A stretch of 64,000 bases of DNA from Minisyncoccia bacterium (GTDB taxonomy: Bacteria; Patescibacteriota; Minisyncoccia; Phycocordibacterales; Phycocordibacteraceae), in contig JBCLFD010000001.1 in the NCBI GenBank assembly GCA_038912545.1, positions 18,956-82,955 on the forward strand, written 5' to 3'. Under the pieces are notes generated by a model. The model did not search any database, was not told where the DNA came from, and saw only the letters and a list, made by a program, of their open reading frames with translations. The position numbers and the translations under genes were made by a program. This document shows positions 9,265 through 56,084 of this stretch, piece after piece (position 1 is the first letter of the stretch; each line of letters starts with the position of its first letter).

Positions 9265-9302
9265 AGTCGCAACATGGTAGCATGGGATTCAAAACGAGCA
9301 AA

Positions 9303-9935
9303 ATGACTTTACTTCTCGCCCTCATCGTTCTCATTCTCTCCATTATCCTCCACGAGGTGGCGCACGGCTACGCTGCCGACTCGCTCGGCGACCCGACCGC
9401 GCGTCTCGCCGGTCGCCTGACTCTTAATCCGGTCCCACATATTGATCTTATGGGTTCCATCGTACTTCCGGCATTACTGGTATTCACTCAATCGCCGATT
9501 CTCTTCGGTTGGGCGAAGCCGGTTCCCTATAATCCCTATAATCTGCGCAATAAGCGCTGGGGGGAGGCGCTCGTCGCTGTTGCGGGCTCGGCAACGAACA
9601 TTCTGCTCGCCATTATCTTTGGTCTCATTGTGCGCTATGGGGCGGGGCTTGGCTTTGATGCCACCGCACTTTCTCTGGCTTCCACGATTGCATTCGTCAA
9701 TCTCTTTTTAGGACTCTTTAATCTCATCCCGATACCCCCTTTAGACGGCTTCACGACTCTGCGCGCGCTCCTGCCATGGAATCTCGCCCAGAGTCTTATT
9801 CGTTTTGAAAATCAAATCCGCGCTGGAGGTGCTCTCTCACTCATCCTCTTCCTCCTCATTTTCTACTACGTTCTTGCTGTCCCTTTCTTCAAGCTTGTTA
9901 TGTATCTCTTCGGTCTCCTTATTGGTGGCGTGTAG
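9303..9935 (+). CDS. site-2 protease family (M50) zinc metalloprotease
   Basis: HEVAHG HExxH motif in TM1, LNPxxHxD, multiple TM segments. Start trimmed to MTLLLAL. Confidence 0.7.
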   Translation: MTLLLALIVLILSIILHEVAHGYAADSLGDPTARLAGRLTLNPVPHIDLMGSIVLPALLVFTQSPILFGWAKPVPYNPYNLRNKRWGEALVAVAGSATNILLAIIFGLIVRYGAGLGFDATALSLASTIAFVNLFLGLFNLIPIPPLDGFTTLRALLPWNLAQSLIRFENQIRAGGALSLILFLLIFYYVLAVPFFKLVMYLFGLLIGGV

Positions 9936-9974: not shown

Positions 9975-10418
9975 ATGGAGTACCAAGTTCCGCAGTTTAT
10001 TGAAGTGGAGGATAAGGTCGTTGGACCACTGACGCTCCGACAATTTATCTATCTCGCCGGCTCTGGCGGTATCTGTGTCATCCTCATCGCCTACCTGCCA
10101 CTCGTTTTCGCGATTCTGCTCTGCATCCCCGTTGTTGCGCTCGGTGCCGCGCTTTCTTTTTATAAAGTAAACGGTAAATCGTTTATAGAAATTCTTGAAG
10201 CGGGCTTCAATTATTACACTGGAGCAAAGATGTTTCTCTGGAAGCGGGAAGCGCCGAAAGCAGAGAAGCCCGGCGCTGCAGCGGCTGCTGCCGCAGCCGC
10301 TGAGGCCGCGCTTCATCCAAAACACGCTCCGCGTCTCACAAGCGGAAAGCTCACCGAGCTCGCGTGGTCGTTAGATATTCAGAAACCAGACACTAACATC
10401 CTAGAGCCAAAATCCTAA
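9975..10418 (+). CDS. PrgI/VirB3-like small membrane protein (T4SS-associated)
   Basis: Two adjacent TM helices after a short N-terminus, poly-Ala/Lys tail, position directly 5' of the VirB4 ATPase. Confidence 0.55.
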   Translation: MEYQVPQFIEVEDKVVGPLTLRQFIYLAGSGGICVILIAYLPLVFAILLCIPVVALGAALSFYKVNGKSFIEILEAGFNYYTGAKMFLWKREAPKAEKPGAAAAAAAAAEAALHPKHAPRLTSGKLTELAWSLDIQKPDTNILEPKS

Positions 10419-10423
10419 TTTGT

Positions 10424-11062
10424 ATGTCTACTCCAACCATCGGCGCCACACAGCATTTCGTTCCCGTTAAAGAGATCCGGAACGGTACCATTATCCTGAA
10501 TGATGGCGGGTATCGCGGTATCCTTATGTGCTCCTCTATCAACTTCGGTCTCAAGTCGGCCGACGAACAGCACGCCATCACGCTTGGATTCCAAAACTTC
10601 TTGAATATGCTTGATTTCTCTATTCAAATCGTTATCAACTCGCGCAAAATGGACCTGCGTCCCTATCTCGCACTCTTAGAGGGGAAATCCGCCGACCAAA
10701 AGACCGAACTAATGCGCATTCAACTGCGTGAATATGTGGAATTCGTCCGTTCGTTCGCCGATCAGGCGAATATTATGACGAAAATGTTTTATATCGTTGT
10801 GCCGTACGCGCCGAGAGCGAGCGTGGCAAATGTTCTGCATACAATCAGCTTTCTCGGCGGGAAGAAAGAAACTCAAGCGGTTCGTGACAGCTCTTTTGAA
10901 GAAGACCGTATCCAGCTTGAACAGCGCCTCTCGCTCGTTGCAGGAGGACTTGAAGGCACCGGCGTGCGCGCGGTCCCTCTCGGCACCGAAGAAGTGATTG
11001 AGCTCCTCTATCGGGCGTTCAATCCGGGCGAGCTGGAGAATCCGATTCGTCTTGATGCATGA
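10424..11062 (+). CDS. VirB4/TraC-type ATPase, N-terminal domain fragment (separate ORF)
   Basis: VPVKEIRNGTIILNDGGYRGILMCSSINFGLKSADEQ matches the start of the CagE_TrbE_VirB N-domain. Ends 36 nt before the ATPase ORF. Confidence 0.6.
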   Translation: MSTPTIGATQHFVPVKEIRNGTIILNDGGYRGILMCSSINFGLKSADEQHAITLGFQNFLNMLDFSIQIVINSRKMDLRPYLALLEGKSADQKTELMRIQLREYVEFVRSFADQANIMTKMFYIVVPYAPRASVANVLHTISFLGGKKETQAVRDSSFEEDRIQLEQRLSLVAGGLEGTGVRAVPLGTEEVIELLYRAFNPGELENPIRLDA

Positions 11063-11098: not shown

Positions 11099-12913
11099 AT
11101 GTCCTTACTCGACTTTCTCAACAAAAAGAATCAAGAAACGCCGGAGATTGTGCCGGTCCTGCCGAAAGACATCTACCGACAGGGGACACTGAATCTCGTT
11201 GATACGATAGCGCCAACCGCGCTGAAGATCGGCTCGCGCGAGCTGGAGCTCGGAGAGAAGTTCGTCCGTGCATTTTATACAATCTCCTATCCGCGTTTTC
11301 TAGCGGACAGCTGGTTCTCGCCAGTGGTGAATCTGGATAAAGTGCTGGATGTCTCAATCTTCATCCACCCGATAGACACCGAGCAGGCGCTCCGCAATTT
11401 CCAGAAAAAGGTCGCCGAGGTGGAGAGCCAGATTAATGAACGCGAGACGAAGGGCCTTGTGCGCGATCCGATGCTTGATACCTCCCACCAGGACCTTGAG
11501 TCGCTCCGCAACAATCTCCAACAGGCGCAGGAAAAACTTTTTGATGTCGGTCTTTACCTTGCGCTTTACGGCGACTCCCGAGAAGAAATTGACAAAACCG
11601 AGGGCGATATCCGCGGGATTCTTGATGCGAAGCTCGTTTACACCAAGCCCGCGCTCTTCCAACAGGAACAAGGATTCCGCTCCTGCCTCCCACTCGGCAC
11701 CGATGAACTCTTGGTTAATTCTAAACTGAATTCGTCGCCCCTCTCGTCGTTCTTCCCCTTCGTTTCGTTTGACCTCACGAGCGATCGCGGGATTCTCTAC
11801 GGGATAAATAGGCATAATTCATCCCTCATCCTCTTTGACCGCTTCTCGCTGGAGAATTACAACTCGGTCGTCTTCGCAAAGTCTGGCTCGGGCAAGAGTT
11901 ATGCGACGAAGCTGGAGGTACTTCGTTCGCTTATGTTCGGCACCGACGTCATCGTCATTGACCCAGAGCGCGAATATGAACAGCTCGCCGAGGCCACCGG
12001 CGGTCGTTCCTTCAATATCTCGCTCTCATCCGAACATCACATCAACCCTTTTGACCTCCCTCCGGTAAAGGAGGATGAGGACCCTCGCGATATCCTGCGC
12101 TCTAACATTATCAATCTCGTCGGGCTTTTCCGCCTTATGCTCGGCGGGCTCTCGCCAACCGAGGACGCGATTATTGACCGTGCCATCAGCGAGACGTATG
12201 CACTTAAAGACATCACCGGCGACGCAGACTTCACCGGTGCGGAACCGCCCTTGCTCTCCGACTTTGAACAAGTGCTCTCTGGCATGGAGGGAAGCGAATC
12301 CCTCGTGGAGCGACTCTCCAAATATACACGCGGGACGTGGTCGGGGTTCCTCAACCAGCCGACGAATATCAATATCAATCAGCAGTTCGTCGTCTTCTCG
12401 GTACGTGATATGGAGGATGAGTTGAAACCGATTGCGATGTATATCACGACGCACTACATCTGGAACGCGATACGTCACGAACTGAAGAAACGCCTGCTCA
12501 TTATTGACGAGGCATGGTGGATGATGAAGAGCGAAGACACAGCGAGCTTCCTCTACAGTATGGCAAAGCGCGGACGCAAATATTATCTCGGCGTCTGCAC
12601 CATCACGCAGGACGTGGAGGACTTCTTAAAGAGCCCGTACGGGAGGCCGATTCTCACAAACTCTTCACTTCAGCTCCTCTTGAAACAATCACCGACGACA
12701 ATTGATGTGCTCCAGCAGACATTTAATCTCACCGACGAAGAAAAATATCTCCTGCTGGAAGCGGGTGTGGGGGAGGGGCTCTTCTTCGCAGGGCTGAAGC
12801 ACGTCGCGATAAAGGTCGTCGCGAGCTATACCGAGGATCAAATCATCACCTCCGATCCTTCCCAGCTCATTGCGATTAAACAAGAGAAGGATCGCCATGC
12901 CGCGCAACAATAG
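11099..12913 (+). CDS. VirB4/TraC-type conjugal-transfer ATPase (core)
   Basis: FVRAFYTISYPRF N-domain continuation. Walker A AKSGSGKSY, Walker B LLIIDEAWWMM. Confidence 0.8.
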   Translation: MSLLDFLNKKNQETPEIVPVLPKDIYRQGTLNLVDTIAPTALKIGSRELELGEKFVRAFYTISYPRFLADSWFSPVVNLDKVLDVSIFIHPIDTEQALRNFQKKVAEVESQINERETKGLVRDPMLDTSHQDLESLRNNLQQAQEKLFDVGLYLALYGDSREEIDKTEGDIRGILDAKLVYTKPALFQQEQGFRSCLPLGTDELLVNSKLNSSPLSSFFPFVSFDLTSDRGILYGINRHNSSLILFDRFSLENYNSVVFAKSGSGKSYATKLEVLRSLMFGTDVIVIDPEREYEQLAEATGGRSFNISLSSEHHINPFDLPPVKEDEDPRDILRSNIINLVGLFRLMLGGLSPTEDAIIDRAISETYALKDITGDADFTGAEPPLLSDFEQVLSGMEGSESLVERLSKYTRGTWSGFLNQPTNININQQFVVFSVRDMEDELKPIAMYITTHYIWNAIRHELKKRLLIIDEAWWMMKSEDTASFLYSMAKRGRKYYLGVCTITQDVEDFLKSPYGRPILTNSSLQLLLKQSPTTIDVLQQTFNLTDEEKYLLLEAGVGEGLFFAGLKHVAIKVVASYTEDQIITSDPSQLIAIKQEKDRHAAQQ

Positions 12914-13523
12914 TAGTCCGCCACCACCGCCCGTGATGACGTGGGGCAAAGCATCTCCGATTCTCATCGTCTCCGGCATTTTTGATGCTCTTCGTTATAT
13001 GTTTTTGATGTTTTGGTTTTTCGGACCGGCTCTGGCAGCCCTCTACTGCACCGTCAAAACTAGCGCGGTGGTCGGGACGACTATAGGAGGGTTCGCGTGT
13101 ACAACAGGAGCTGCGGTGGTTGGTTTCTACGGGGCGCCCATCTTTGCCGCCTTTGGTACTATCATGGCGATGGCGACTGCGCTCGCTGGATTCCTCACCG
13201 TATTCCTTCTTCTCGCCATTATGAATAGTCGTGTATTCAAAGAGCCAACGACAATTTTGTGGGCATTGTTCGGCCTTACTATCAGCATCACCGTCACGGT
13301 GTGGCGGCTCTACAGCGCGCAGATTAAAACCGAAAAGGCTGCCTATAAAAAATGGGAAAAGGAAACTGCAGATGCGCGTGCGCGCGAACAACAACAGCGC
13401 GCTCTACAAGCTCAGCAAGCCCAACAAGCCCAGCAGATGCAACAGACGCAAGCGGAGCAAATTGCTGAACAAGAAGAAACACAACAAGAGGAACAAAAGA
13501 GTCGCGCGGAGGCGTTATACTAG
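12897..13523 (+). CDS. polytopic membrane protein with Gln/Glu-rich C-terminal coiled tail (T4SS-cluster protein)
   Basis: 3-4 TM helices, then QQQRALQAQQAQQAQQMQQTQAEQ. ATG at 12897 overlaps the VirB4 stop; an alternative start is at 12936. Confidence 0.5.
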   Translation: MPRNNSSPPPPPVMTWGKASPILIVSGIFDALRYMFLMFWFFGPALAALYCTVKTSAVVGTTIGGFACTTGAAVVGFYGAPIFAAFGTIMAMATALAGFLTVFLLLAIMNSRVFKEPTTILWALFGLTISITVTVWRLYSAQIKTEKAAYKKWEKETADARAREQQQRALQAQQAQQAQQMQQTQAEQIAEQEETQQEEQKSRAEALY

Positions 13524-13527
13524 AGAC

Positions 13528-14505
13528 ATGCGATATGCGCTTCTGATAGGACTTATGCTCGTGGCGCCGATGATGGTGTCGGCGCAGTATATGACGAGTA
13601 CGGATCCATTCAACCTCACGGTCACGCCTCAGTATCCCGTACCGAATAGTTCTGTCACTCTCACCGCACTCTCTGCGGGCATTGATCTCGCGAACGCGAC
13701 AATGGATGTTTCTGCGAACGGTACGTCGGTCTACAAGGGCTCGGTACGCGCGGTTGATGTCCCAGTCCTAGGCGCCGGCGTGCTCATTAATATACGAGTA
13801 GTGATAACGAGCAATGGCGCGAGCGCGAGCCAGACGGTTTCTGTCCGCCCGCAGGACCTCGTGCTTATAACTGAACCGCTCGCGACCGCACCACCGCTCT
13901 ATCTCGGCAAAGCACTTCCGCCTCTCGGCGGGAGTGTGCGCATTGTCGCCGTAGCAGGATTTAAAAATGGAAGCGGTACCGCGCTTGACCCCGCGAAACT
14001 CTCGTATGCGTGGAAGGTGGACGACGCTCTCCAGGCGAATATGTCGGGTATCGGTAAGAGCGCGATTATCGTCGCGACACCGCTTCAATATCGCAATCGC
14101 AGTGTGTCGGTGGTCGTCCAGAGCCAAGACGGCTCTCTCGTGACCGGCGCATCGCTCTCGCTCGCCCCTCACGAACCGACCGTTCGTATTTATGAAAATG
14201 ACCCCCTGCTCGGCATCCGCTTTGACCGCGCACTATCGTCTTCATACTCCATCACTGATGCAGAATCCTCGCTCTATGCTGGCCTCTATTCATTCCCGAC
14301 TGGAGCGGGCACATCCGCGATTAATTGGTATCTAAATGGTGCACTCGCACAGAGCGGTACAACGATAACACTCCGTCCCACGGGGCTAGGGAAGGGGAAT
14401 GCCTCTCTTTCGCTCGTCGCGGCAATAGGCGACCTTGTGAGCGCAACACAATCGCTTCAAATATTATTCGGGGCGAAGCCCACATCTAATTTCTTCGGCT
14501 TATGA
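13528..14505 (+). CDS. secreted protein (signal peptide, Ala/Ser/Val-rich, beta-rich)
   Basis: MRYALLIGLMLVAPMMVSAQ signal peptide. The listed N-terminal extension is basic read-through, so the start is trimmed. Confidence 0.5.
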   Translation: MRYALLIGLMLVAPMMVSAQYMTSTDPFNLTVTPQYPVPNSSVTLTALSAGIDLANATMDVSANGTSVYKGSVRAVDVPVLGAGVLINIRVVITSNGASASQTVSVRPQDLVLITEPLATAPPLYLGKALPPLGGSVRIVAVAGFKNGSGTALDPAKLSYAWKVDDALQANMSGIGKSAIIVATPLQYRNRSVSVVVQSQDGSLVTGASLSLAPHEPTVRIYENDPLLGIRFDRALSSSYSITDAESSLYAGLYSFPTGAGTSAINWYLNGALAQSGTTITLRPTGLGKGNASLSLVAAIGDLVSATQSLQILFGAKPTSNFFGL

Positions 14506-15458
14506 TGAGAAAAACTTTTATAACTTTGTCGCTCTTCGCCATCGCATTTGTGGCAACGTCCGCGCACGCTCAAGAATTCATCCCGCTCGCGCCCATTCCG
14601 GGCCTCACCACAGGAATAACAGCAGATCAGGCGGGTCTCGCGAACTTTTTAAATAATCTTTACAAATATCTCATTGGTCTTGCTGCTGTTATCGCGGTGG
14701 TAGAGATTATCTGGGGCGGTCTCCTCTATTCCACACAGGATGTGCCGGGATCGAAAACGAATGGAAAAGAAAAAATCCAGAATGCACTCCTCGGCCTCGT
14801 CCTCGTCCTCTCCCCCGTCCTTGTCTTCTCCATCATCAATCCAAGCATCCTGAATCTCTCCATCAATCTCCCGGAGCTCGACACAAAATCCGGCGCTCCG
14901 AATCAAACAGGGGGTACGGGAGGAACTGGGACTCAAACTGTTGATGCTACAACTAACTGTACTGTGACGGGCACGATTGGCATCCTCCAGATTGCGACTT
15001 GTCCAACAGAGTCTGCATCAAAAACATGGGGGGCGACGTGTACGTGGGGTAATTTGTCGTCAATTGAACCCCTCACGATTAGTGCTGGTGGTGCCGTTGC
15101 ACAAAATACAATTTCCTGCTCTAACAAAAACAGTTATGTATTCATAGAGACGATAGGTGTAGTAAGCTTTTCGAAAGCAATAAATACTCTTCGTCCATTA
15201 GCCCAGACTGTCGACAATTCCGAGAATGCATCATCTGCAATTTCGTTTGCGAATATTTGTAATGCAGCAGGACGAAAAACATGCATAAGTGACATCCCTA
15301 AGGTTACTTTTTCCGTTGAGTGTTTACCAAAACCAATGACACAAATTCCTGCCTCATCCGGAGGAAGCGGCAAATGCTATAAAGAGACACTTACTTGTGA
15401 AAATGTAAGCGGAAATACAAAGTGTGTTGCAACTCCTGATTGGACACCATTCCAATAA
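14502..15458 (+). CDS. TrbC/VirB2-like pilin-fold protein with Cys-rich C-terminal extracellular domain
   Basis: Signal peptide, two hydrophobic helices (YLIGLAAVIAVVEIIWGGLLY; ALLGLVLVLSPVLVF), then a ~190-aa domain with 12 Cys. Confidence 0.5.
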   Translation: MMRKTFITLSLFAIAFVATSAHAQEFIPLAPIPGLTTGITADQAGLANFLNNLYKYLIGLAAVIAVVEIIWGGLLYSTQDVPGSKTNGKEKIQNALLGLVLVLSPVLVFSIINPSILNLSINLPELDTKSGAPNQTGGTGGTGTQTVDATTNCTVTGTIGILQIATCPTESASKTWGATCTWGNLSSIEPLTISAGGAVAQNTISCSNKNSYVFIETIGVVSFSKAINTLRPLAQTVDNSENASSAISFANICNAAGRKTCISDIPKVTFSVECLPKPMTQIPASSGGSGKCYKETLTCENVSGNTKCVATPDWTPFQ

Positions 15459-15460
15459 AT

Positions 15461-17095
15461 ATGCGACGGACACTTACCATCATCGCAGTTGTGATAGTCC
15501 TCGGAGGACTTGTGGTGTGGGCGTATTTCTCATTCTTCGCAAATCAGGCGGGCATTACGGTCGCGCCAACGGGTACGACGAGCTTGCCGGGAGCAGGGCA
15601 GGCGACTACCCCCACTCAGGGCGAGACGGCGTCTCCGGCGACGACTGCGGTCACTACAGCGGCTGGTGCACGGTTGGTGAAGATAAGTGCGGGGCCGGTG
15701 GTGCCGAGCCCTATTGTTTACAGAAGCACGTCAACAACAACACCAGGATTCTTTGTAAACTACATTGAGCGACAGAGCGGAAACGTTTTCTCCTATTCGT
15801 CTGTCACCCGTTCATCCACGAGAATAAGCAACAAAACCGTTCCGGGAATCCAGTTGGCAGTGTGGCTTCCGAGTGCCCAGACGGCGTTTGTGCGCTATCT
15901 ATCGGGCACTGATTCTACAACTATCAATACGTACGCTCTGAACGCGGACGGTTCCGACGGTTTCTTTTTGGAACAAAATCTCGCTGATATCGCCGTTTCT
16001 TCAACCAGTATTTTGACTCTCGCGTCTGGCGTAACCGGCTCGGTCGCGTCCACCCGCCGCACCGATGGGACGCGCTCGGTTGAAGTGTTTTCTTCGCCAC
16101 TCTCCTCTCTCCGAGTCGCCCTCGCCGGTAAGAATCGTTATTTCGCCTTTACCAATCCTTCGTCATCTCTCGGTGGAGCGGTATTTCTTGTTGATGGTGC
16201 TGGTCGGCTCTCTCGCATCGCCGGTCCTCTAAACGGACTCGTCGCTCTCCCGAGCCCTTCGGGCGCGACCGTGCTCGTGAGCTATGTGGTCGGCGGCGCG
16301 ATGCAGATGGAGCTTGTGAACACCGCGACCGGCGCCGTGACTCAACTCCCGGTCGCTACTATCGCCGACAAATGTGTCTGGGCTGCTGACAACTTGGCGG
16401 TCTATTGTGGTATCCCAATGAACCCTCCGGCGAACTACACCTACCCAGACGACTGGTACCAGAGCGCAATTTCATTCTCTGATCGTATCTGGAAGATTAA
16501 TGTCGCCGGACGCTATGCTGAATTGGTCCTTGATTTCTCAAAAGAAAATGATATCGCTCTTGATGCTGTGGCTCTTTCTATTGATTCTGCCGGAACGGCA
16601 CTCTCCTTCATCAATAAAATAGACGGCTCTCTCTGGGTATATTCACCACAAATATCGTATCAAGAAGCATCGCAAACATCGCCAGCCCCAACCATTCAAG
16701 TGCCAGTTTCACAAAAAACACCATCAATCAATCAAAATACACCCTCCTCAACAAACAATTCAGAAGTAAATACCCCTCCCGTTTCAACAGGAGCACAAAC
16801 TAACAATCAACTAACGCCAAATCCAACAACATCCGTACCGTCAAGCGTTTCTGTAAACATACAAGGTTTTGCGTTTAATCCCTCAACACTGACAATTAAA
16901 AAAGACACAAAGGTTACGTGGACTAATAATGACAGTGTAATTCATACTGTAACTTCTGATTCCGGTAATCTTCTAAATTCGCCAACACTTTCTCCTGGAA
17001 CATCTTTCAGTTTTACTTTCGCCAACACTGGTTCACTAACCTATCATTGTGCTGTTCACCCGACTATGAAAAGCACAATTATTGTTGAAAACTAA
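15461..17095 (+). CDS. membrane-anchored protein with C-terminal amicyanin/plastocyanin-like cupredoxin domain
   Basis: N-terminal TM, Thr/Ser-rich linker. C-terminus KVTWTNNDSVIHTV...YHCAVHPTM carries type-1 Cu ligands His, Cys-x2-His-x2-Met. Confidence 0.65.
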   Translation: MRRTLTIIAVVIVLGGLVVWAYFSFFANQAGITVAPTGTTSLPGAGQATTPTQGETASPATTAVTTAAGARLVKISAGPVVPSPIVYRSTSTTTPGFFVNYIERQSGNVFSYSSVTRSSTRISNKTVPGIQLAVWLPSAQTAFVRYLSGTDSTTINTYALNADGSDGFFLEQNLADIAVSSTSILTLASGVTGSVASTRRTDGTRSVEVFSSPLSSLRVALAGKNRYFAFTNPSSSLGGAVFLVDGAGRLSRIAGPLNGLVALPSPSGATVLVSYVVGGAMQMELVNTATGAVTQLPVATIADKCVWAADNLAVYCGIPMNPPANYTYPDDWYQSAISFSDRIWKINVAGRYAELVLDFSKENDIALDAVALSIDSAGTALSFINKIDGSLWVYSPQISYQEASQTSPAPTIQVPVSQKTPSINQNTPSSTNNSEVNTPPVSTGAQTNNQLTPNPTTSVPSSVSVNIQGFAFNPSTLTIKKDTKVTWTNNDSVIHTVTSDSGNLLNSPTLSPGTSFSFTFANTGSLTYHCAVHPTMKSTIIVEN

Positions 17096-17187
17096 CCTAA
17101 TTGTTTCGCTCTAAATTCCGATTGTCTCATTATTTCTACGGTCGTAAGTAAGTTGTGCTGATTAACATGTTTGGTCTGTTGGGTTGT

Positions 17188-17940
17188 TTACTCGGGAATG
17201 GTAAGAGATTTTGAGGCAGAACCCTTGGCGAGAGAGCGGCGCATATGCAATTCTTGGAGAGATCCGACGAGGTTTGTGGTGATGAAGTACAAAGCGAGGG
17301 CACTTGAAGTTGTATAGGAAATAATGCCAATAAGGAAGGGAAATACATATTTGAGCTGGAGGCCCATAATCTTTTGAAAGTCACCCTGCATACCGCCCGT
17401 GCTGGAGGGTTTCATCGTTCCTGCGAGAGAGAGATGTGCTTGAAGATATTGTGTGAGCCCTGCAAGTACTGCGAGCACAATACTCTTGCCCGTTACCGCA
17501 ATAATACCAAGTAGATTGAGCGATACCTCATCAGGAACTGGAGTAAATGAATATAAAAGTGCCGTATTTGCTCCCGAAAACGGTTCATAAAAGAATACCC
17601 AATAGAGAGCGAGAAGAACAGGGATTTGAATAAACACCATTAAGATACTGGCAAAAGGATTCACTTTTGCCTCTTTATAAAGAGAGAGTGTCGCTAGTGC
17701 TTCTTTTTCTTTATTCCCTTTGTGGATTTCCTTGAGCTCTTTTAGTTTCGGTTCCAAGTCTCTCATAGCGTGCTGTGTGCGCGCTGCAGCGAGAGAGAAT
17801 GGAAGAAGAATAAGCCGAATGACTATCGTGAGGAGGATAACGGCGATGCCGATGTCCGAACCTGGTACAAGCGCCACAAGCGCCACAAGCGCATTGTAGA
17901 TTGGATCATAAAAAACGGCGTGGAAAAATGCAGATATCAT
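17188..17940 (-). CDS. yidC: membrane protein insertase YidC (short form)
   Basis: YidC/Oxa1 core TM pattern, plus synteny with rnpA-rpmH-dnaA. Confidence 0.85.
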   Translation of the reverse strand: MISAFFHAVFYDPIYNALVALVALVPGSDIGIAVILLTIVIRLILLPFSLAAARTQHAMRDLEPKLKELKEIHKGNKEKEALATLSLYKEAKVNPFASILMVFIQIPVLLALYWVFFYEPFSGANTALLYSFTPVPDEVSLNLLGIIAVTGKSIVLAVLAGLTQYLQAHLSLAGTMKPSSTGGMQGDFQKIMGLQLKYVFPFLIGIISYTTSSALALYFITTNLVGSLQELHMRRSLAKGSASKSLTIPE

Positions 17941-34106: not shown

Positions 34107-35954
34107 CTACCGCCCTCTATTCTGATAATTGTTTTGAATTTTTTCTTTAACTTGATAACCATAATTATTTTCATTTTGTCTGCGTGATTCAGAATTACTT
34201 TCGGTATGATCAGAAGGCTTCCTGGTATACGGAAGAGTTATAGGTAATGTGATAGGTAGTATAATTGGTTTTATAATGGTTGGAATTGGGGAAAATGTTG
34301 GCAAAGGAAGTATTGTTGGTGCTGGCATTATGATGGGCGTAGGATCTGGAGATAAAACTGGCACAGTAGTTGTGGGTGTGGTTGTTATAGGAGTTGTTGT
34401 AACTGGTGCAATTGTGGTTGGTGGTGTTGTAGTAGCAACAGGCGTGGTAATTGGGGTTGGGTATAGTTGATTCGCCATAGTGATTGCTTTGTCAGCTTTA
34501 ACCAAACCATAACCGTGCCATTTATCATACCCAACTGTTCCAATATCTATGGCGGAACTATCAAGAATATTTCTAATTTCATCATTTATTCTTCCGTTAC
34601 CATTTGAGTCAGTGATGTTCATTCCCATAAGTAACGCTGCTACACCGGTAACATGAGGAGCTGCCATAGATGTTCCATTGTATAAAATATTACCTCCACC
34701 AAGTTTTGTTGAGTTAATATTTACTCCAGGTGCTGATAGTTCTATTTTATTACCCGTTGCGGAAAAACAGGGACGAGCATTTGATGAATCAATTGCAGCC
34801 ACAGCAATTACTGAAGAATACATCGCTGGATACTCTGTAGTATTTGTATCGCCAAGACAAGTTCCAGAATTACCAGCCGAGGCCACATTGATAATTCCCT
34901 TGGCTTCTAATGCGGTAAAAGCTGACTCAAGTCCATTGCCAGGATTGGTTGGTGTACCATAACTACTATTTGTAATTTGTATACCGTTATTGACTGACCA
35001 TTGTAACGCTGCAATAATATCACTCGTATATCCCTTTCCTTGAGCATCTAAAACTTTCAAAGCATAAATTTTTACATCAGGTGCTACACCAATAACACCA
35101 ACATTGTTTTTTATAGCCGCAATAGTTCCAGCAATGTGTGTACCATGCCCATTATCATCAAGTGGATCCGCTGTACCATTTACGAAATTAAACCCACCAG
35201 CATAATTTAAATTTAAATCCGTATGGTTGTAGTCAATACCAGTATCTAGGACTGCCACTTTAATTGTCTTTCCTGTTTGACCAGAAGCATGCGCAGAATC
35301 AGATCCAATGTGCAAAACACCCCAAGTATTTGTGTATTCTTGAACAGCACGAATGTAAACTAACTCGTCTATTTCAACAGAAGCAACATTAGGATCTTTA
35401 GAAAGATTTATTACTTCTGAATCAGAAACTTCTGCAGCAATAGCTGGAATAATGTTAAACGTGTGTTTTCTTTTTCCACCTCTAGAAAAAATAAAATCCT
35501 CGTCTGCTTTAATTGGGTTTCTTTTATAGTTAATGATGACTCTTTTTGTAGTTGTAGGTGTAGAGGACACTGCAACATTTGTGGTTTGAGAATTAATTGG
35601 GCGATTTTCTAAAAATGAAGGAGACTCTAATTTGGCAATGGGGTTAGCATTAGTAGATTTAGTTAACGTATTTAATATACTTAAAGTTTTTGGACCGACT
35701 ACACCAACGGTTTCAACGCCATATTTTTTTTGAAAAGCTGTAACAGCTTTTTTTGTTAGTAGGCCATAATAACCAGTAACCAGACCTTCTGGATATATAG
35801 AAATATCTGTAGACAAAAGTTTTTGTAAATTTGAAACATCTTCACCTCTAGATCCAAGAGTAAGATTTCTTGTAAAGGTTGCAGAATCTGCCAAAACTGA
35901 TGAGGTAAATAAAAATGGAACTACTAATAAAAATGGTAATAATTTTTTTTTCAT
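34107..35954 (-). CDS. subtilisin-family (S8) serine protease with N-terminal peptidoglycan-binding domain and Thr/Pro-rich C-terminal linker; the gene is AT-rich
   Basis: Signal peptide. PG_binding_1 (LQKLLSTDISIYPEGLVTGYYGLLTKKAVTAFQ). Asp/His/Ser triad (DTGIDYNH, HGTHIAG, GTSMAAPHV). TTPPTTIAPVTTTP repeats. Confidence 0.8.
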   Translation of the reverse strand: MKKKLLPFLLVVPFLFTSSVLADSATFTRNLTLGSRGEDVSNLQKLLSTDISIYPEGLVTGYYGLLTKKAVTAFQKKYGVETVGVVGPKTLSILNTLTKSTNANPIAKLESPSFLENRPINSQTTNVAVSSTPTTTKRVIINYKRNPIKADEDFIFSRGGKRKHTFNIIPAIAAEVSDSEVINLSKDPNVASVEIDELVYIRAVQEYTNTWGVLHIGSDSAHASGQTGKTIKVAVLDTGIDYNHTDLNLNYAGGFNFVNGTADPLDDNGHGTHIAGTIAAIKNNVGVIGVAPDVKIYALKVLDAQGKGYTSDIIAALQWSVNNGIQITNSSYGTPTNPGNGLESAFTALEAKGIINVASAGNSGTCLGDTNTTEYPAMYSSVIAVAAIDSSNARPCFSATGNKIELSAPGVNINSTKLGGGNILYNGTSMAAPHVTGVAALLMGMNITDSNGNGRINDEIRNILDSSAIDIGTVGYDKWHGYGLVKADKAITMANQLYPTPITTPVATTTPPTTIAPVTTTPITTTPTTTVPVLSPDPTPIIMPAPTILPLPTFSPIPTIIKPIILPITLPITLPYTRKPSDHTESNSESRRQNENNYGYQVKEKIQNNYQNRGR

Positions 35955-42808: not shown

Positions 42809-42921
42809 TCTATTGTAGGATTGTGGTTGCCATATTTGACTTATTATCTCAATAATATCATTTTTCAGCTCACTAAACCATTGCATTAATTTTATACCTT
42901 GTGTATACTATAGTTATCACT

Positions 42922-43614
42922 ATGAAATCAACACAGCAACAAAATATGTTCGGTTTATCTAATAAACAGACTGGTTATTCTGTTTATAACGAGGATGCAA
43001 AAAAACGAGCAAAGCAAAATACACTCTCGGAACTTTATCCTAAATTGCCGAACAAAAAATTTGATGTAATTTATGCTGATCCACCTTGGGATTATAATGG
43101 TAAGTTGCAATTTGATAAAAGTAGTACAAATGTAGAAAATCTGGATTTGTCGCGGAAGATATTTATCAGTTCGGCTTCATTTAAATATCCGACACTAAAA
43201 ACAACTGAACTAATGAAATTACCTGTTCAAGAAATTGCAAAAGGTGATTGCTTATTATTCATGTGGACATCAAATCCACATTTGGCTCAAGCGATAGAAC
43301 TTGGTAATGCCTGGGGTTTTGATTATAAAACTGTTGCTTTTGTTTGGGATAAAATGAATCACAATCCTGGGCAATACACACTTTCAAATTGTGAGATATG
43401 TCTAGTATTCAAAAGAGGCAAGATACCAAGACCACGCGGAGCAAGAAATATAAAACAGTTGGTTAGAAGTCCGAGAAAAAAACACAGCGAGAAACCAATG
43501 GAGGTAATTCAAGCAATAGAAAAAATGTTTCCTAATCAAGAACGCATCGAATTATTTGCAAGACGAAAAACGGACGGTTGGTCAGTTTGGGGATTAGATG
43601 TGTTTAACGAGTAA
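42922..43614 (+). CDS. MT-A70-family N6-adenine DNA methyltransferase (R-M system M subunit)
   Basis: DVIYADPPWDYNGK (DPPW motif IV), MT-A70-like fold order. AT-rich. ATG at 42922 preferred over the listed GTG at 42901. Confidence 0.75.
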   Translation: MKSTQQQNMFGLSNKQTGYSVYNEDAKKRAKQNTLSELYPKLPNKKFDVIYADPPWDYNGKLQFDKSSTNVENLDLSRKIFISSASFKYPTLKTTELMKLPVQEIAKGDCLLFMWTSNPHLAQAIELGNAWGFDYKTVAFVWDKMNHNPGQYTLSNCEICLVFKRGKIPRPRGARNIKQLVRSPRKKHSEKPMEVIQAIEKMFPNQERIELFARRKTDGWSVWGLDVFNE

Positions 43615-43624
43615 AACAAATAGT

Positions 43625-44236
43625 CTACATCAGCAAACGCTTCAATTTCTTATTGAAATGGTCAACTAGAGATTTTCCATTTAACGAATTACTCCACATA
43701 AAGAAATGGCCAGAATGGCCTGTATACCAACAGTGAATTTCTCTTACTCTTTTTGGATCTCTAGCAATATCACCTTGAAATACGACCCAAAAAGGTAAAA
43801 CATTCTGACCAAGTTTTCCTTGTTCTCTTAATATCTTCAATAGACCCGGGGTAAAAAACTTATTGGATCTTTCATGGGCATTTCCTCTACCAGCTTTTCT
43901 TGGCTTTCCTTCTACCCACCCGTCTTGTCTTTTAACTTCCACATAAAGAGTCTTTTTAGTCTTTAGATTATCAATAGCAAAATCTGGCACTACTCCATGA
44001 ACCCAAGTTTCGTTCGGATTATAAATTGCAGATAAAGTTTCTTTGCTGAGTTTTATTTTTGAATAGATATCTTTGAATTCTCGTGGTTTAGAACGAACTC
44101 TAAAATCGGTACCCTTGAATTCTTTTGAGAGTATTTCATAAAAATTTTTCTCAGCAATCCCAGCCTTACCTCCGCTAGCATTTTGCCAATTCTCTCTTTT
44201 TCGTAATGCTTTTGTTCCCATAAATTTATTTTTCAA
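43625..44236 (-). CDS. putative Type II restriction endonuclease (PD-(D/E)xK)
   Basis: VPDFAIDNL...YVEVKRQ fits PD...ExK. Convergent with the MTase, directly downstream of and overlapping a C-protein gene. Confidence 0.55.
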   Translation of the reverse strand: MKNKFMGTKALRKRENWQNASGGKAGIAEKNFYEILSKEFKGTDFRVRSKPREFKDIYSKIKLSKETLSAIYNPNETWVHGVVPDFAIDNLKTKKTLYVEVKRQDGWVEGKPRKAGRGNAHERSNKFFTPGLLKILREQGKLGQNVLPFWVVFQGDIARDPKRVREIHCWYTGHSGHFFMWSNSLNGKSLVDHFNKKLKRLLM

Positions 44237-53708: not shown

Positions 53709-54086
53709 TTGCATATGGAAACAAATAAAAACAATGTACTTATTATTGGTCTTCTTACCCTCATGCTCGGTCTCGTCATCGGATACTTTGTCGGTACAAG
53801 TCGTCCTAATGGAATGATGGGTTACAACACCAACGCTCCGACTACTATGCACGGTGCAATGGGTGGAATGATGGCTGGCTTGGAGGGCAAGACGGGAGAC
53901 GCTCTTGGTTTAGCATTCCTTGATGGAATGATTATTCACCACGAAGGAGCAGTGGAGATGGCAACCGTAATTCTTCAAGACACAAAACGACCAGAACTTT
54001 TCAAGCTCGCCAACGACATTATCACTGCTCAAACGCAAGAGATTGGAATGATGGAACAGTGGCGTAAGGATTGGTTCAACAAATAA
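53709..54086 (+). CDS. DUF305-domain protein (metal/copper-resistance-associated)
   Basis: N-terminal TM; HHEGAVEMA and later Q..EI..M motifs typical of DUF305. Confidence 0.65.
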   Translation: MHMETNKNNVLIIGLLTLMLGLVIGYFVGTSRPNGMMGYNTNAPTTMHGAMGGMMAGLEGKTGDALGLAFLDGMIIHHEGAVEMATVILQDTKRPELFKLANDIITAQTQEIGMMEQWRKDWFNK

Positions 54087-54834: not shown

Positions 54835-55371
54835 ATGGCTTTATTTACTGGCAAAGGCGATGGAGGTACGACAAAGGTTTTTGGCTGTAACCAACAGAGG
54901 ATTTCTAAATCGTCAGAATTACCCGAGGCGCTCGGCGCGTTGGATGAGTTGAATACCTATCTTGGATTTGTAAAAATGCGTGCAACGGGGTCGCTACACA
55001 TTGCAAAAGAAGTTCGCGCGGTGCAAGAAAATCTTTTTATCATCCAAGCGCAAACGGCGGGCGCGGATAAAAAATTAGCACCCACGATAGTGGGGGAGAT
55101 GGAAAAGTTTATTGGAGACATAGAAAAAGAAATTCCGCCGATTACCGGTTTCTCTATTGCCGGCGGTACCGAACTCTCTGCGATTCTAGACGTTGCGCGC
55201 ACTATTTCTCGACGCGCTGAACGCCGACTCATCGCGGTAGAAGAGAGCGGGTTGCGCACTATGCCACCCGAGACCAAAGCATATATGAACCGCCTTTCCT
55301 CACTCCTCTTCGCACTCGCCCGCCTCGCGAATCACGAGCAGGGCGTGAAAGAGGAAAACCCGCGGTATTAG
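54835..55371 (+). CDS. PduO-type ATP:cob(I)alamin adenosyltransferase
   Basis: MALFTGKGDGGTTKVFG...ALDELNTYLGF matches Cob_adeno_trans. Confidence 0.8.
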   Translation: MALFTGKGDGGTTKVFGCNQQRISKSSELPEALGALDELNTYLGFVKMRATGSLHIAKEVRAVQENLFIIQAQTAGADKKLAPTIVGEMEKFIGDIEKEIPPITGFSIAGGTELSAILDVARTISRRAERRLIAVEESGLRTMPPETKAYMNRLSSLLFALARLANHEQGVKEENPRY

Positions 55372-56084
55372 TGATTCGTGTGCTCCGCGTGCAAGCCGAT
55401 TTCGTGGATAGAACGGTTGCGATGCACTAACTCATCGTTACGAACCGAACAGAAGAATTCATATTCGGAACGTGGGTGTCGCCCGTACCACGCGAGGAAT
55501 TCGCTCGTGATAGAACGTTCTCGTAACGTGTGTTCATTTTCCTTAAGGAAGCGCGAATATTGATCAAAAGCATGCTGCTCAAAGAGATAGTTCGTTTCAA
55601 GCGACCAGCGCGGACAGACGAGGTAAAGCAGGTACGAAATCCAGAAATAGAAGAACGCAAAGAACATCGGAACGAAGGTATAACGGAAGAACCCAGTGCG
55701 CGAGTGTGTGCGGGCGAGTGCAGATATTACCACCACATGCATCGTCTCGTTGTCGCCAGCGAAACGGACGAAACGCGAAACGGTTGAAAGTCGTAGTGCC
55801 CGCGTCTCGTCCGCGTAAAAGAGTGTAAGCAAGGTAAAGATTGCTGAGTCCCACGAGTGGTAGGGGACACGCGCAATCACCTCTATGGCACGAAACTTCA
55901 GATACGAGGGTTTGTTACCATAGAAAATATTTCCGCACGCTATAAGGAATCCGCCGAACAGGCGCGGGAAGAGTGCGGGATGATAATTATCATACGGCGC
56001 TGCATAGTCGGCGCGTGCCGTATCGTCGTTGAGCGACTCTACAAGCTGTTCGAAATCGGCCTGTTCATGAAGCATCAGATGCAC
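55368..56084 (-). CDS. alternative-oxidase-like di-iron carboxylate protein (AOX/PTOX family)
   Basis: Four-helix ExxH-type ligands: IEVIARVPYH, GDNETMHVVV (compare NERMHL), LETNYLFEQHAFDQY, LHAEHTNH. Confidence 0.55.
   Translation of the reverse strand: MHLMLHEQADFEQLVESLNDDTARADYAAPYDNYHPALFPRLFGGFLIACGNIFYGNKPSYLKFRAIEVIARVPYHSWDSAIFTLLTLFYADETRALRLSTVSRFVRFAGDNETMHVVVISALARTHSRTGFFRYTFVPMFFAFFYFWISYLLYLVCPRWSLETNYLFEQHAFDQYSRFLKENEHTLRERSITSEFLAWYGRHPRSEYEFFCSVRNDELVHRNRSIHEIGLHAEHTNH

Follow-up and report, generated by a model that had tools for sequence, protein, structure and literature searches.

Why does a gene at the end of a type IV secretion system (T4SS)-like cluster encode a blue-copper domain in an ultra-small bacterium? 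The question is posed by a 64,000-nt stretch of DNA from a Minisyncoccia bacterium (GenBank assembly GCA_038912545.1, contig JBCLFD010000001.1, positions 18,956 to 82,955), here called the window. On its plus strand, the open reading frame (ORF) 15461-17095 encodes 544 aa followed by a stop codon. The deduced protein has an N-terminal membrane anchor and a C-terminal cupredoxin domain. A preliminary description, made from the sequence alone, found such a blue-copper carrier in a secretion-like cluster unexpected and implied that the two are coupled. Comparison with orthologues points elsewhere: The gene is probably the product of a recent, lineage-specific fusion that arose by insertion of foreign cupredoxin DNA, with an incidental link to the T4SS.

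Architecture of the fusion protein

The protein is composed of a transmembrane (TM) anchor, a disordered stretch, a beta-propeller, a linker and the cupredoxin domain, in that order (Table 1). The ORF has two possible starts, TTG at 15440 and ATG at 15461. The ATG (MRRTLT...) is the start common to all propeller homologues. The public gene call, P0477 (527 aa, on an 89,120-bp NCBI contig), begins at an internal GTG at window position 15512. Since this GTG truncates the TM anchor shared by the homologues, automated annotation would miss the membrane anchor.

The N- and C-terminal halves of the protein were modelled separately with AlphaFold2 (AF2). In the N-terminal model, a disordered Thr/Ala/Pro-rich stretch (aa 27-70) separates the TM helix from the propeller, and the last propeller strand (aa 390-394) is kept ahead of the linker. 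A fold search with the propeller yields only generic propellers at about 10% identity (oligogalacturonate lyase, TolB, WD40 proteins). The propeller is devoid of His and contains two Cys residues (Cys305 and Cys316), both of which are invariant in its family. The linker comprises 67 aa (12 Ser, 11 Pro, 11 Thr, 8 Gln and 8 Asn) and has a G+C content (GC) of 0.42, with 0.24 at third codon positions (GC3). The peptide stretch spanning the chimera reads ...SLWVYSPQISYQEA.... The anchor, the beta-rich domain and the low-complexity linker of the preliminary description are all recovered.

The copper domain

The C-terminal domain is a bona fide cupredoxin of the amicyanin/plastocyanin type by sequence, fold and ligands. 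Two Pfam profiles match it at aa 462-543 above their curated cut-offs: Copper-bind (PF00127; 33.6 bits, cut-off 21.2, E 5e-8) and Cupredoxin_1 (PF13473; 32.6 bits, cut-off 27). The ligands His, Cys, His and Met are invariant in 49 aligned relatives, the last three in the spacing C-x2-H-x2-M. Profile alignment places all four on the 'MPH' and 'YHCTxHPFM' ligand positions of amicyanin, and the family profile matches amicyanin with an E-value of 1.6e-21. The AF2 model of the domain has a predicted local distance difference test (pLDDT) score of 93-98 and shows seven strands in a Greek-key beta-sandwich fold. Foldseek assigns it to amicyanin with a probability of 1.00 and a root-mean-square deviation of 1.3-1.4 Å over 86 residues; plastocyanins and Nitrosopumilus cupredoxins are also among the fold matches. 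Ligand geometry was judged by superposition and alignment. The preliminary description had proposed profile searches and structure prediction as checks of the complete type-1 copper site, and both support it. Homologues lacking Cys, His or Met, which it had named as a counter-argument, were not encountered among the 49 relatives.

The domain departs from the consensus at one of 35 conserved columns (family median: two) and thus shows no sign of decay. Most likely, it is intact and would bind one type-1 copper outside the cell.

A foreign insert at the end of the propeller gene

A search with the protein yielded 683 homologues. The best 120 have 392-449 aa, cover 67-78% of the query and end in SLW(S/V)Y(E/S/G)L directly before the stop codon. 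In all of these 120 the copper domain is absent. At 90% identity, five proteins form a cluster: P0001, P0475 and P0476 comprise 396 aa and lack the extension, P0474 is an aberrant 370 aa protein (see below), and P0477 is the window's own. The domain is also absent at six syntenic loci, which include lineages at 77%, 58% and 29% identity and a member of the 90% cluster. It is not a conserved member of the T4SS-like cluster.

At loci with 91%, 77%, 58% and 29% protein identity, the gene order is identical, and the end of the propeller gene coincides with the 3' end of the convergent yidC or overlaps it. The closest locus, L001, shares 90-94% nucleotide identity with the window and is collinear with it save for the insert (Table 1) and two variable spots. 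The insert (~0.55 kb) takes the place of some 36 nt in L001 and lies where the stop codons of the propeller gene and yidC normally overlap by 4 nt. It has a GC of 0.39 and a GC3 of 0.25 versus 0.55 and 0.57 in the propeller part. This foreign composition points to a recent arrival of the domain. At the right edge, the YidC C-terminus is kept except for its last residues (...ASKSLTIPE versus ...ASKTLTKV, each followed by the stop). The flanks of the insert contain no target-site duplications, terminal inverted repeats or mobile-element signatures, and short repeats occur there only at chance level. No terminator is predicted in the new intergenic spacer. Given the foreign nature of the insert and its absence from the 120 orthologues, the implied coupling between the blue-copper carrier and secretion is not supported.

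Stand-alone cupredoxins as donor family

Searched alone, the domain retrieves 116 proteins, nearly all of 125-150 aa, the best of which are 65-75% identical to it. Several of them are named cupredoxin or plastocyanin and come from Paceibacterota, Nomurabacteria or 'Patescibacteria group' bacteria. Their layout is MKK, a TM helix, an Asn/Thr/Ser/Pro-rich linker and the cupredoxin. The extension of the window protein aligns with them from the linker on, and the two linkers are homologous in kind. The fusion junction lies at the place of their TM helix. Donor-type contigs have a GC of 0.35-0.41, which matches the insert; the best DNA match to the insert reaches 73%. Taken together, the absence from orthologues, the foreign insert and the existence of stand-alone relatives argue for a recent lineage-specific, apparently even strain-specific, insertion.

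In the stand-alone cupredoxins closest to the insert, the gene overlaps by 4 nt with an upstream gene encoding a ~124-aa protein with four TM helices (4-TM protein) and no Pfam match. The 4-TM family comprises 59 clusters, all on Patescibacteria-type contigs, and has the invariant residues D26, H30, W36, P39, Y42, K46, Q83, Y86 and H103. For at least eight more pairs, the cupredoxin cluster and the 4-TM cluster come from contigs of equal size. In the window, no homologue of the 4-TM protein was found. The cassette of this protein, with its two invariant His, and an anchored cupredoxin may constitute a minimal trans-membrane path for electrons or copper. The matches also include many long proteins (500-1150 aa; e.g. 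P0241 with 1154 aa, P0254 and P0260) with three to ten tandem cupredoxins that are 32-46% identical to that of the window.

Proposed origin of the fusion

The donor would be a 5'-truncated copy of an ordinary membrane-anchored Patescibacteria cupredoxin gene from a low-GC genome. The transferred piece would have comprised the linker, the copper domain and, downstream of it, some 90 nt of further DNA, without a start codon or TM anchor. It would have entered in frame at the 4-nt stop-codon overlap between the propeller gene and the convergent yidC, whereby the last codon and the stop of the propeller gene would have been lost. The propeller protein would now bear the copper domain on a 67-aa tether and replace the signal-anchor that the cupredoxin has lost. 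Since the globular parts of both parents are predicted to be exposed outside the membrane, the topology would be preserved. At the cell surface, the fused domain would act as its stand-alone relatives do, i.e. in one-electron transfer to NirK or a multicopper oxidase, or in copper handling.

If the fusion is real, it provides a natural example of how new surface proteins arise in ultra-small, gene-poor bacteria: A truncated foreign gene that arrives at a stop-codon overlap borrows the export signal and the anchor of a resident protein. It would also mean that the C-terminus of the propeller is exposed outside the cell and tolerates cargo, which could be useful for tagging or localising a component of the cluster. 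By itself, the fusion reveals no new mechanism of respiration or secretion. Two additional results may prove more widely useful, the propeller as constant last gene of the cluster and the conserved cassette of 4-TM protein and cupredoxin in low-GC Patescibacteria.

The T4SS-like gene cluster

The propeller protein represents a conserved family of ~400 aa without a Pfam family, and its gene is consistently the last one in the T4SS-like cluster of Paceibacteria. Its last position is the same at L001, L002, L040 and L038, i.e. from 91% down to 29% protein identity. Judged by gene position, the propeller part qualifies as a conserved member of this cluster. Close homologues of the fusion protein are named Candidatus Kaiserbacteria, Paceibacterota or Minisyncoccota. 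The fusion gene starts 2 nt after the stop codon of the pilin gene and closes a tightly packed row (Table 1), in agreement with the preliminary description, which had placed it last in the module. It is directly followed by yidC, rnpA, dnaA and dnaN, and the window is a Kaiserbacteria-like chromosome segment around the replication origin. VirB4, VirB3/PrgI, a TrsD/TraC-like protein and a VirB2-like pilin encoded near dnaA are the features by which the Patescibacteria T4SS-like cluster is recognized, and all are found here. The same set beside rnpA-dnaA-dnaN has been described for Patescibacteria as an MPF-FATA-like T4SS cluster next to dnaA, usually without a relaxase (PMC12102498). The sections of that paper on gene repertoire and chromosomal context mention neither a terminal beta-propeller nor a copper domain.

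Relatives that otherwise share 90-94% of their nucleotides differ in the Cys-rich C-terminal half of the pilin-like protein (14884-15460): The protein has 318 aa in the window, 243 aa in L001 and 297 aa in L002. A stretch after the VirB4 gene (13397-13512) also varies between these relatives. Replacements appear to be concentrated at the surface-exposed end of the T4SS-like module.

Table 1. Coordinates of the fusion gene, its parts and related features (window positions unless a locus is named)
Feature	Position (nt)	Strand	Basis
Whole fusion gene	15461-17095	+	ORF list; start agrees with homologues
N-terminal TM signal-anchor, aa 2-26	15464-15538	+	AF2 helix; hydrophobic sequence kept in family
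Beta-propeller, aa 72-395, about seven blades	15674-16645	+	AF2 pLDDT about 90, 27 strands; synteny
Ser/Pro/Thr/Gln/Asn-rich flexible linker, aa 396-462	16646-16846	+	Composition, pLDDT 52-68, alignment with stand-alone proteins
Cupredoxin (type-1 copper) domain, aa 463-544	16847-17092	+	Pfam, invariant ligands, AF2/Foldseek, profile versus PDB
Ligand codon His495	16943-16945	+
Ligand codon Cys530	17048-17050	+
Ligand codon His533	17057-17059	+
Ligand codon Met536	17066-17068	+
Compositionally foreign insert	16637-17227 (blastn outer limits); about 16648-17190 by protein reasoning		DNA alignment, blastn breaks, GC
M50 peptidase	9282-9935		First of the tightly spaced row ending in the fusion gene
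PrgI (VirB3-like)	9975-10418	+	Pfam PrgI
TraC/TrsD-like	10424-11062	+	PF26593 on orthologue in L001
VirB4-like ATPase	11099-12913	+	Pfam P-loop_TraG, AAA_10, DUF87; cluster members named VirB4
Polytopic membrane protein, uncharacterised	12870-13523	+	Same place in L002 and L040; no Pfam match
Secreted protein, about 325 aa, uncharacterised	13528-14505	+	Same place in L002 and L040; no Pfam match
T4SS pilin-like (VirB2/TrbC-like)	14502-15458	+	Pfam T4SS_pilin PF18895, E 8.5e-10
yidC, convergent	17188-17940	-	Synteny annotation 60KD_IMP
Cupredoxin and 4-TM pair	L003 6633-7417
Cupredoxin and 4-TM pair	L004 6606-7417
Cupredoxin and 4-TM pair	L043 5627-6402
Cupredoxin and 4-TM pair	L044 5633-6420

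Alternative explanations

A first alternative concerns function only and is compatible with the proposed origin: The domain might serve copper handling or tolerance, by sequestration or with a multicopper oxidase partner like CopI-type cupredoxins, instead of shuttling electrons in respiration. The inspection of stand-alone relatives covered seven distinct gene neighbourhoods. In one (L007), the cupredoxin gene lies beside genes for a CsoR-type repressor, a P-type ATPase and two multicopper oxidases; in another (L005), it is found near a gene for an HMA/DsbD_2 protein and two further cupredoxin genes. The window itself contains a DUF305 gene and a cation-efflux gene. By contrast, His/Cys/His/Met in the loop spacing of amicyanin is the classic electron-transfer site, and NirK in Kaiserbacteria and Harrisonbacteria has been suggested to receive its electrons from Parcubacteria cupredoxins (PMC5581439). 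Three other relatives are translationally coupled to the 124-aa 4-TM protein, and the contexts are heterogeneous. A role in copper handling in place of electron transport is, on this evidence, rather unlikely. A search for cognate redox partners, also proposed in the preliminary description, revealed neither a nitrite reductase, a multicopper oxidase, an amine dehydrogenase nor a cytochrome within the 64-kb window. A second cupredoxin was not found there either.

A second alternative is an adaptive fusion, in which the copper domain has been integrated with the T4SS-like apparatus, for instance as a redox-active module displayed at the host-contact surface. The tight packing of the gene 2 nt behind the pilin gene, the intact domain with all its ligands and the retained long flexible tether would fit this explanation. 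The same holds for the C-termini of pilin and propeller protein, which vary between close relatives as surface-exposed parts would. However, the domain is missing in every listed orthologue, including those with at least 90% identity, and its foreign composition points to a recent arrival. Furthermore, T4SS genes adjoin none of the seven inspected neighbourhoods, and literature searches on a cupredoxin-T4SS link and on blue copper in Patescibacteria returned nothing relevant in the searched library. A functional link between the copper domain and the secretion apparatus is unsupported, and an adaptive fusion of this kind is distinctly unlikely. It is highly improbable that the fusion has been selected and that the episymbiont, by a blue-copper domain hung on the surface propeller of its T4SS-like host-contact apparatus, exchanges electrons or copper directly with the envelope of its host cell. 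If true, this would amount to a contact-dependent redox link between a candidate phyla radiation (CPR) bacterium and its host.

Several points weigh against the recent insertion of a functional copper domain. Asp at position 482 is unique among the 49 sequences, the other 48 of which carry Gly (Gly482Asp). In a recently acquired domain, decay is not yet expected, and intactness tells little about selection. The search for redox partners covered 64 kb of the genome; a partner enzyme may lie beyond. The fusion is a single sequence, and its left junction rests on one assembly. A second fusion of propeller and cupredoxin was not found among the best 150 matches when 1.84 billion cluster representatives were searched exhaustively with phmmer, when 185,579 GTDB species genomes and JGI metagenomes were scanned with a query across the junction, or in a word-indexed protein search. 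P0477 itself is hidden as a non-representative cluster member and was not seen in searches of representatives. Since fusions can hide in this way, the observed uniqueness is a lower bound on rarity. Moreover, the related contig that encodes P0474 (370 aa; 5,435-bp NCBI contig of a 98%-identical strain) has an aberrant structure at the same place. It tracks the propeller gene to window position 16432, then switches strands and runs backwards from 17362 to 17165, i.e. it contains a fold-back or inversion junction. This suggests that the region is prone to misassembly or rearrangement.

These observations raise a third alternative, an assembly or binning artefact: The extension would be a chimeric join and the protein nonexistent. 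Apart from the singleton status and the fold-back in P0474, the abrupt change in composition at the extension is in accordance with an artefact. On the other hand, within 0.6 kb both flanks of the insert are back in one and the same syntenic genome, with unchanged orientation, and two precise misjoins would be needed. The junction is in frame and located exactly at the boundary between TM helix and linker of the donor. The join in P0474 (16424-16432 to 17362-17165, minus strand) has only 5 nt of microhomology (CCTCC), and yidC would be disrupted by it. Its appearance is that of a chimera or a rearranged minority variant, either a fold-back chimera or an inversion polymorphism of the ~0.9-kb segment that bears the insert. 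The tail of P0474, which stems from an independent assembly and shows two differences in 66 aa, contains the right end of the insert beside yidC and, thus, provides independent support for the right junction. An artefact is, accordingly, very unlikely. A copper-less cupredoxin-fold adhesin domain, for which the surface-protein context and the existence of metal-free cupredoxin folds could be adduced, has a practically negligible probability in view of four ligands that are present, invariant in 49 relatives and aligned with those of amicyanin.

Comparison with known systems

With amicyanin and plastocyanin (PF00127), the window domain shares the fold, the ligand set and about 28-32% identity, and its C-x2-H-x2-M loop has the length found in amicyanin. 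Those proteins are soluble, whereas the window domain is tethered by a long linker to another protein. Unlike them, it is not accompanied by a mau-type operon, a methylamine dehydrogenase or a photosystem. Amicyanin proper was considered and rejected: Neither the window nor the seven stand-alone neighbourhoods contain an amine dehydrogenase gene, and the domain is amicyanin-like in structure only. The domain belongs to the membrane-tethered cupredoxins of Patescibacteria, a group that is common but has received little study. The stand-alone Patescibacteria cupredoxins have the same ligands, the same kind of N/T/S/P-rich linker and 65-75% domain identity. In contrast to the fusion protein, they possess their own TM helix and often a 4-TM partner. 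Both are missing here, and a 395-aa propeller protein serves as anchor instead.

Type-1 copper domains that an anchor and a flexible low-complexity linker keep on the outside of the membrane are known from other monoderms, archaea and Neisseria, with halocyanin, sulfocyanin, auracyanin and the lipid-modified azurin Laz of Neisseria as examples. These proteins are tethered by a lipid or a single TM anchor. None of them is known to have a beta-propeller as fusion partner or to be part of a secretion gene cluster. The best sequence match in the PDB is the C-terminal cupredoxin of a multicopper oxidase/NirK-like protein of Nitrosopumilus (9cck, E 1.5e-28). In both 9cck and the NirK 6hbe, a cupredoxin carrier is likewise fused to the C-terminus of a larger protein. 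Their fusion partner is the redox enzyme itself, whereas here it is a His-free propeller without a recognisable cofactor site. The novelty is limited to what the domain is fused to, namely the beta-propeller protein at the end of the Patescibacteria T4SS-like cluster.

Two further candidates with a similar combination of domains were rejected. The first is NosZ, in which a seven-bladed propeller with CuZ is followed by a C-terminal cupredoxin with binuclear CuA. The propeller of the window protein lacks His, its family has no invariant His, the motif of the cupredoxin is of the mononuclear type-1 kind with one Cys, and NosZ is not among the top 50 fold matches. The second is a reading of propeller plus cupredoxin along the lines of methylamine dehydrogenase (MADH). 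The propeller contains neither His nor a cofactor motif and has generic propeller matches only.

Other features of the window

The preliminary description had also pointed to an AOX-like oxidase gene and a DUF305 gene. Both exist, but they lie 37-39 kb away and are unlinked to the fusion gene. The AOX-like di-iron gene (55368-56084, minus strand) matches Pfam AOX with 29.6 bits (cut-off 22.7), and only its C-terminal half is covered. The DUF305 gene (53709-54086, plus strand) encodes a short protein. The bacterium that carries the two genes belongs to a group in which no respiratory chain is expected. Papers on AOX in CPR bacteria were looked for by text search, and none was found.

Two regions of the window stand out by their low GC. 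An island at 34107-35954 on the minus strand (GC 0.37 compared with about 0.50) contains the gene for an S8 subtilase that includes a peptidoglycan-binding domain and is probably another horizontally acquired surface or secreted protein. A second low-GC stretch at 40-44 kb (GC 0.42-0.46) contains the genes for a MunI-type restriction enzyme and an MT-A70 methyltransferase (42901-44236).

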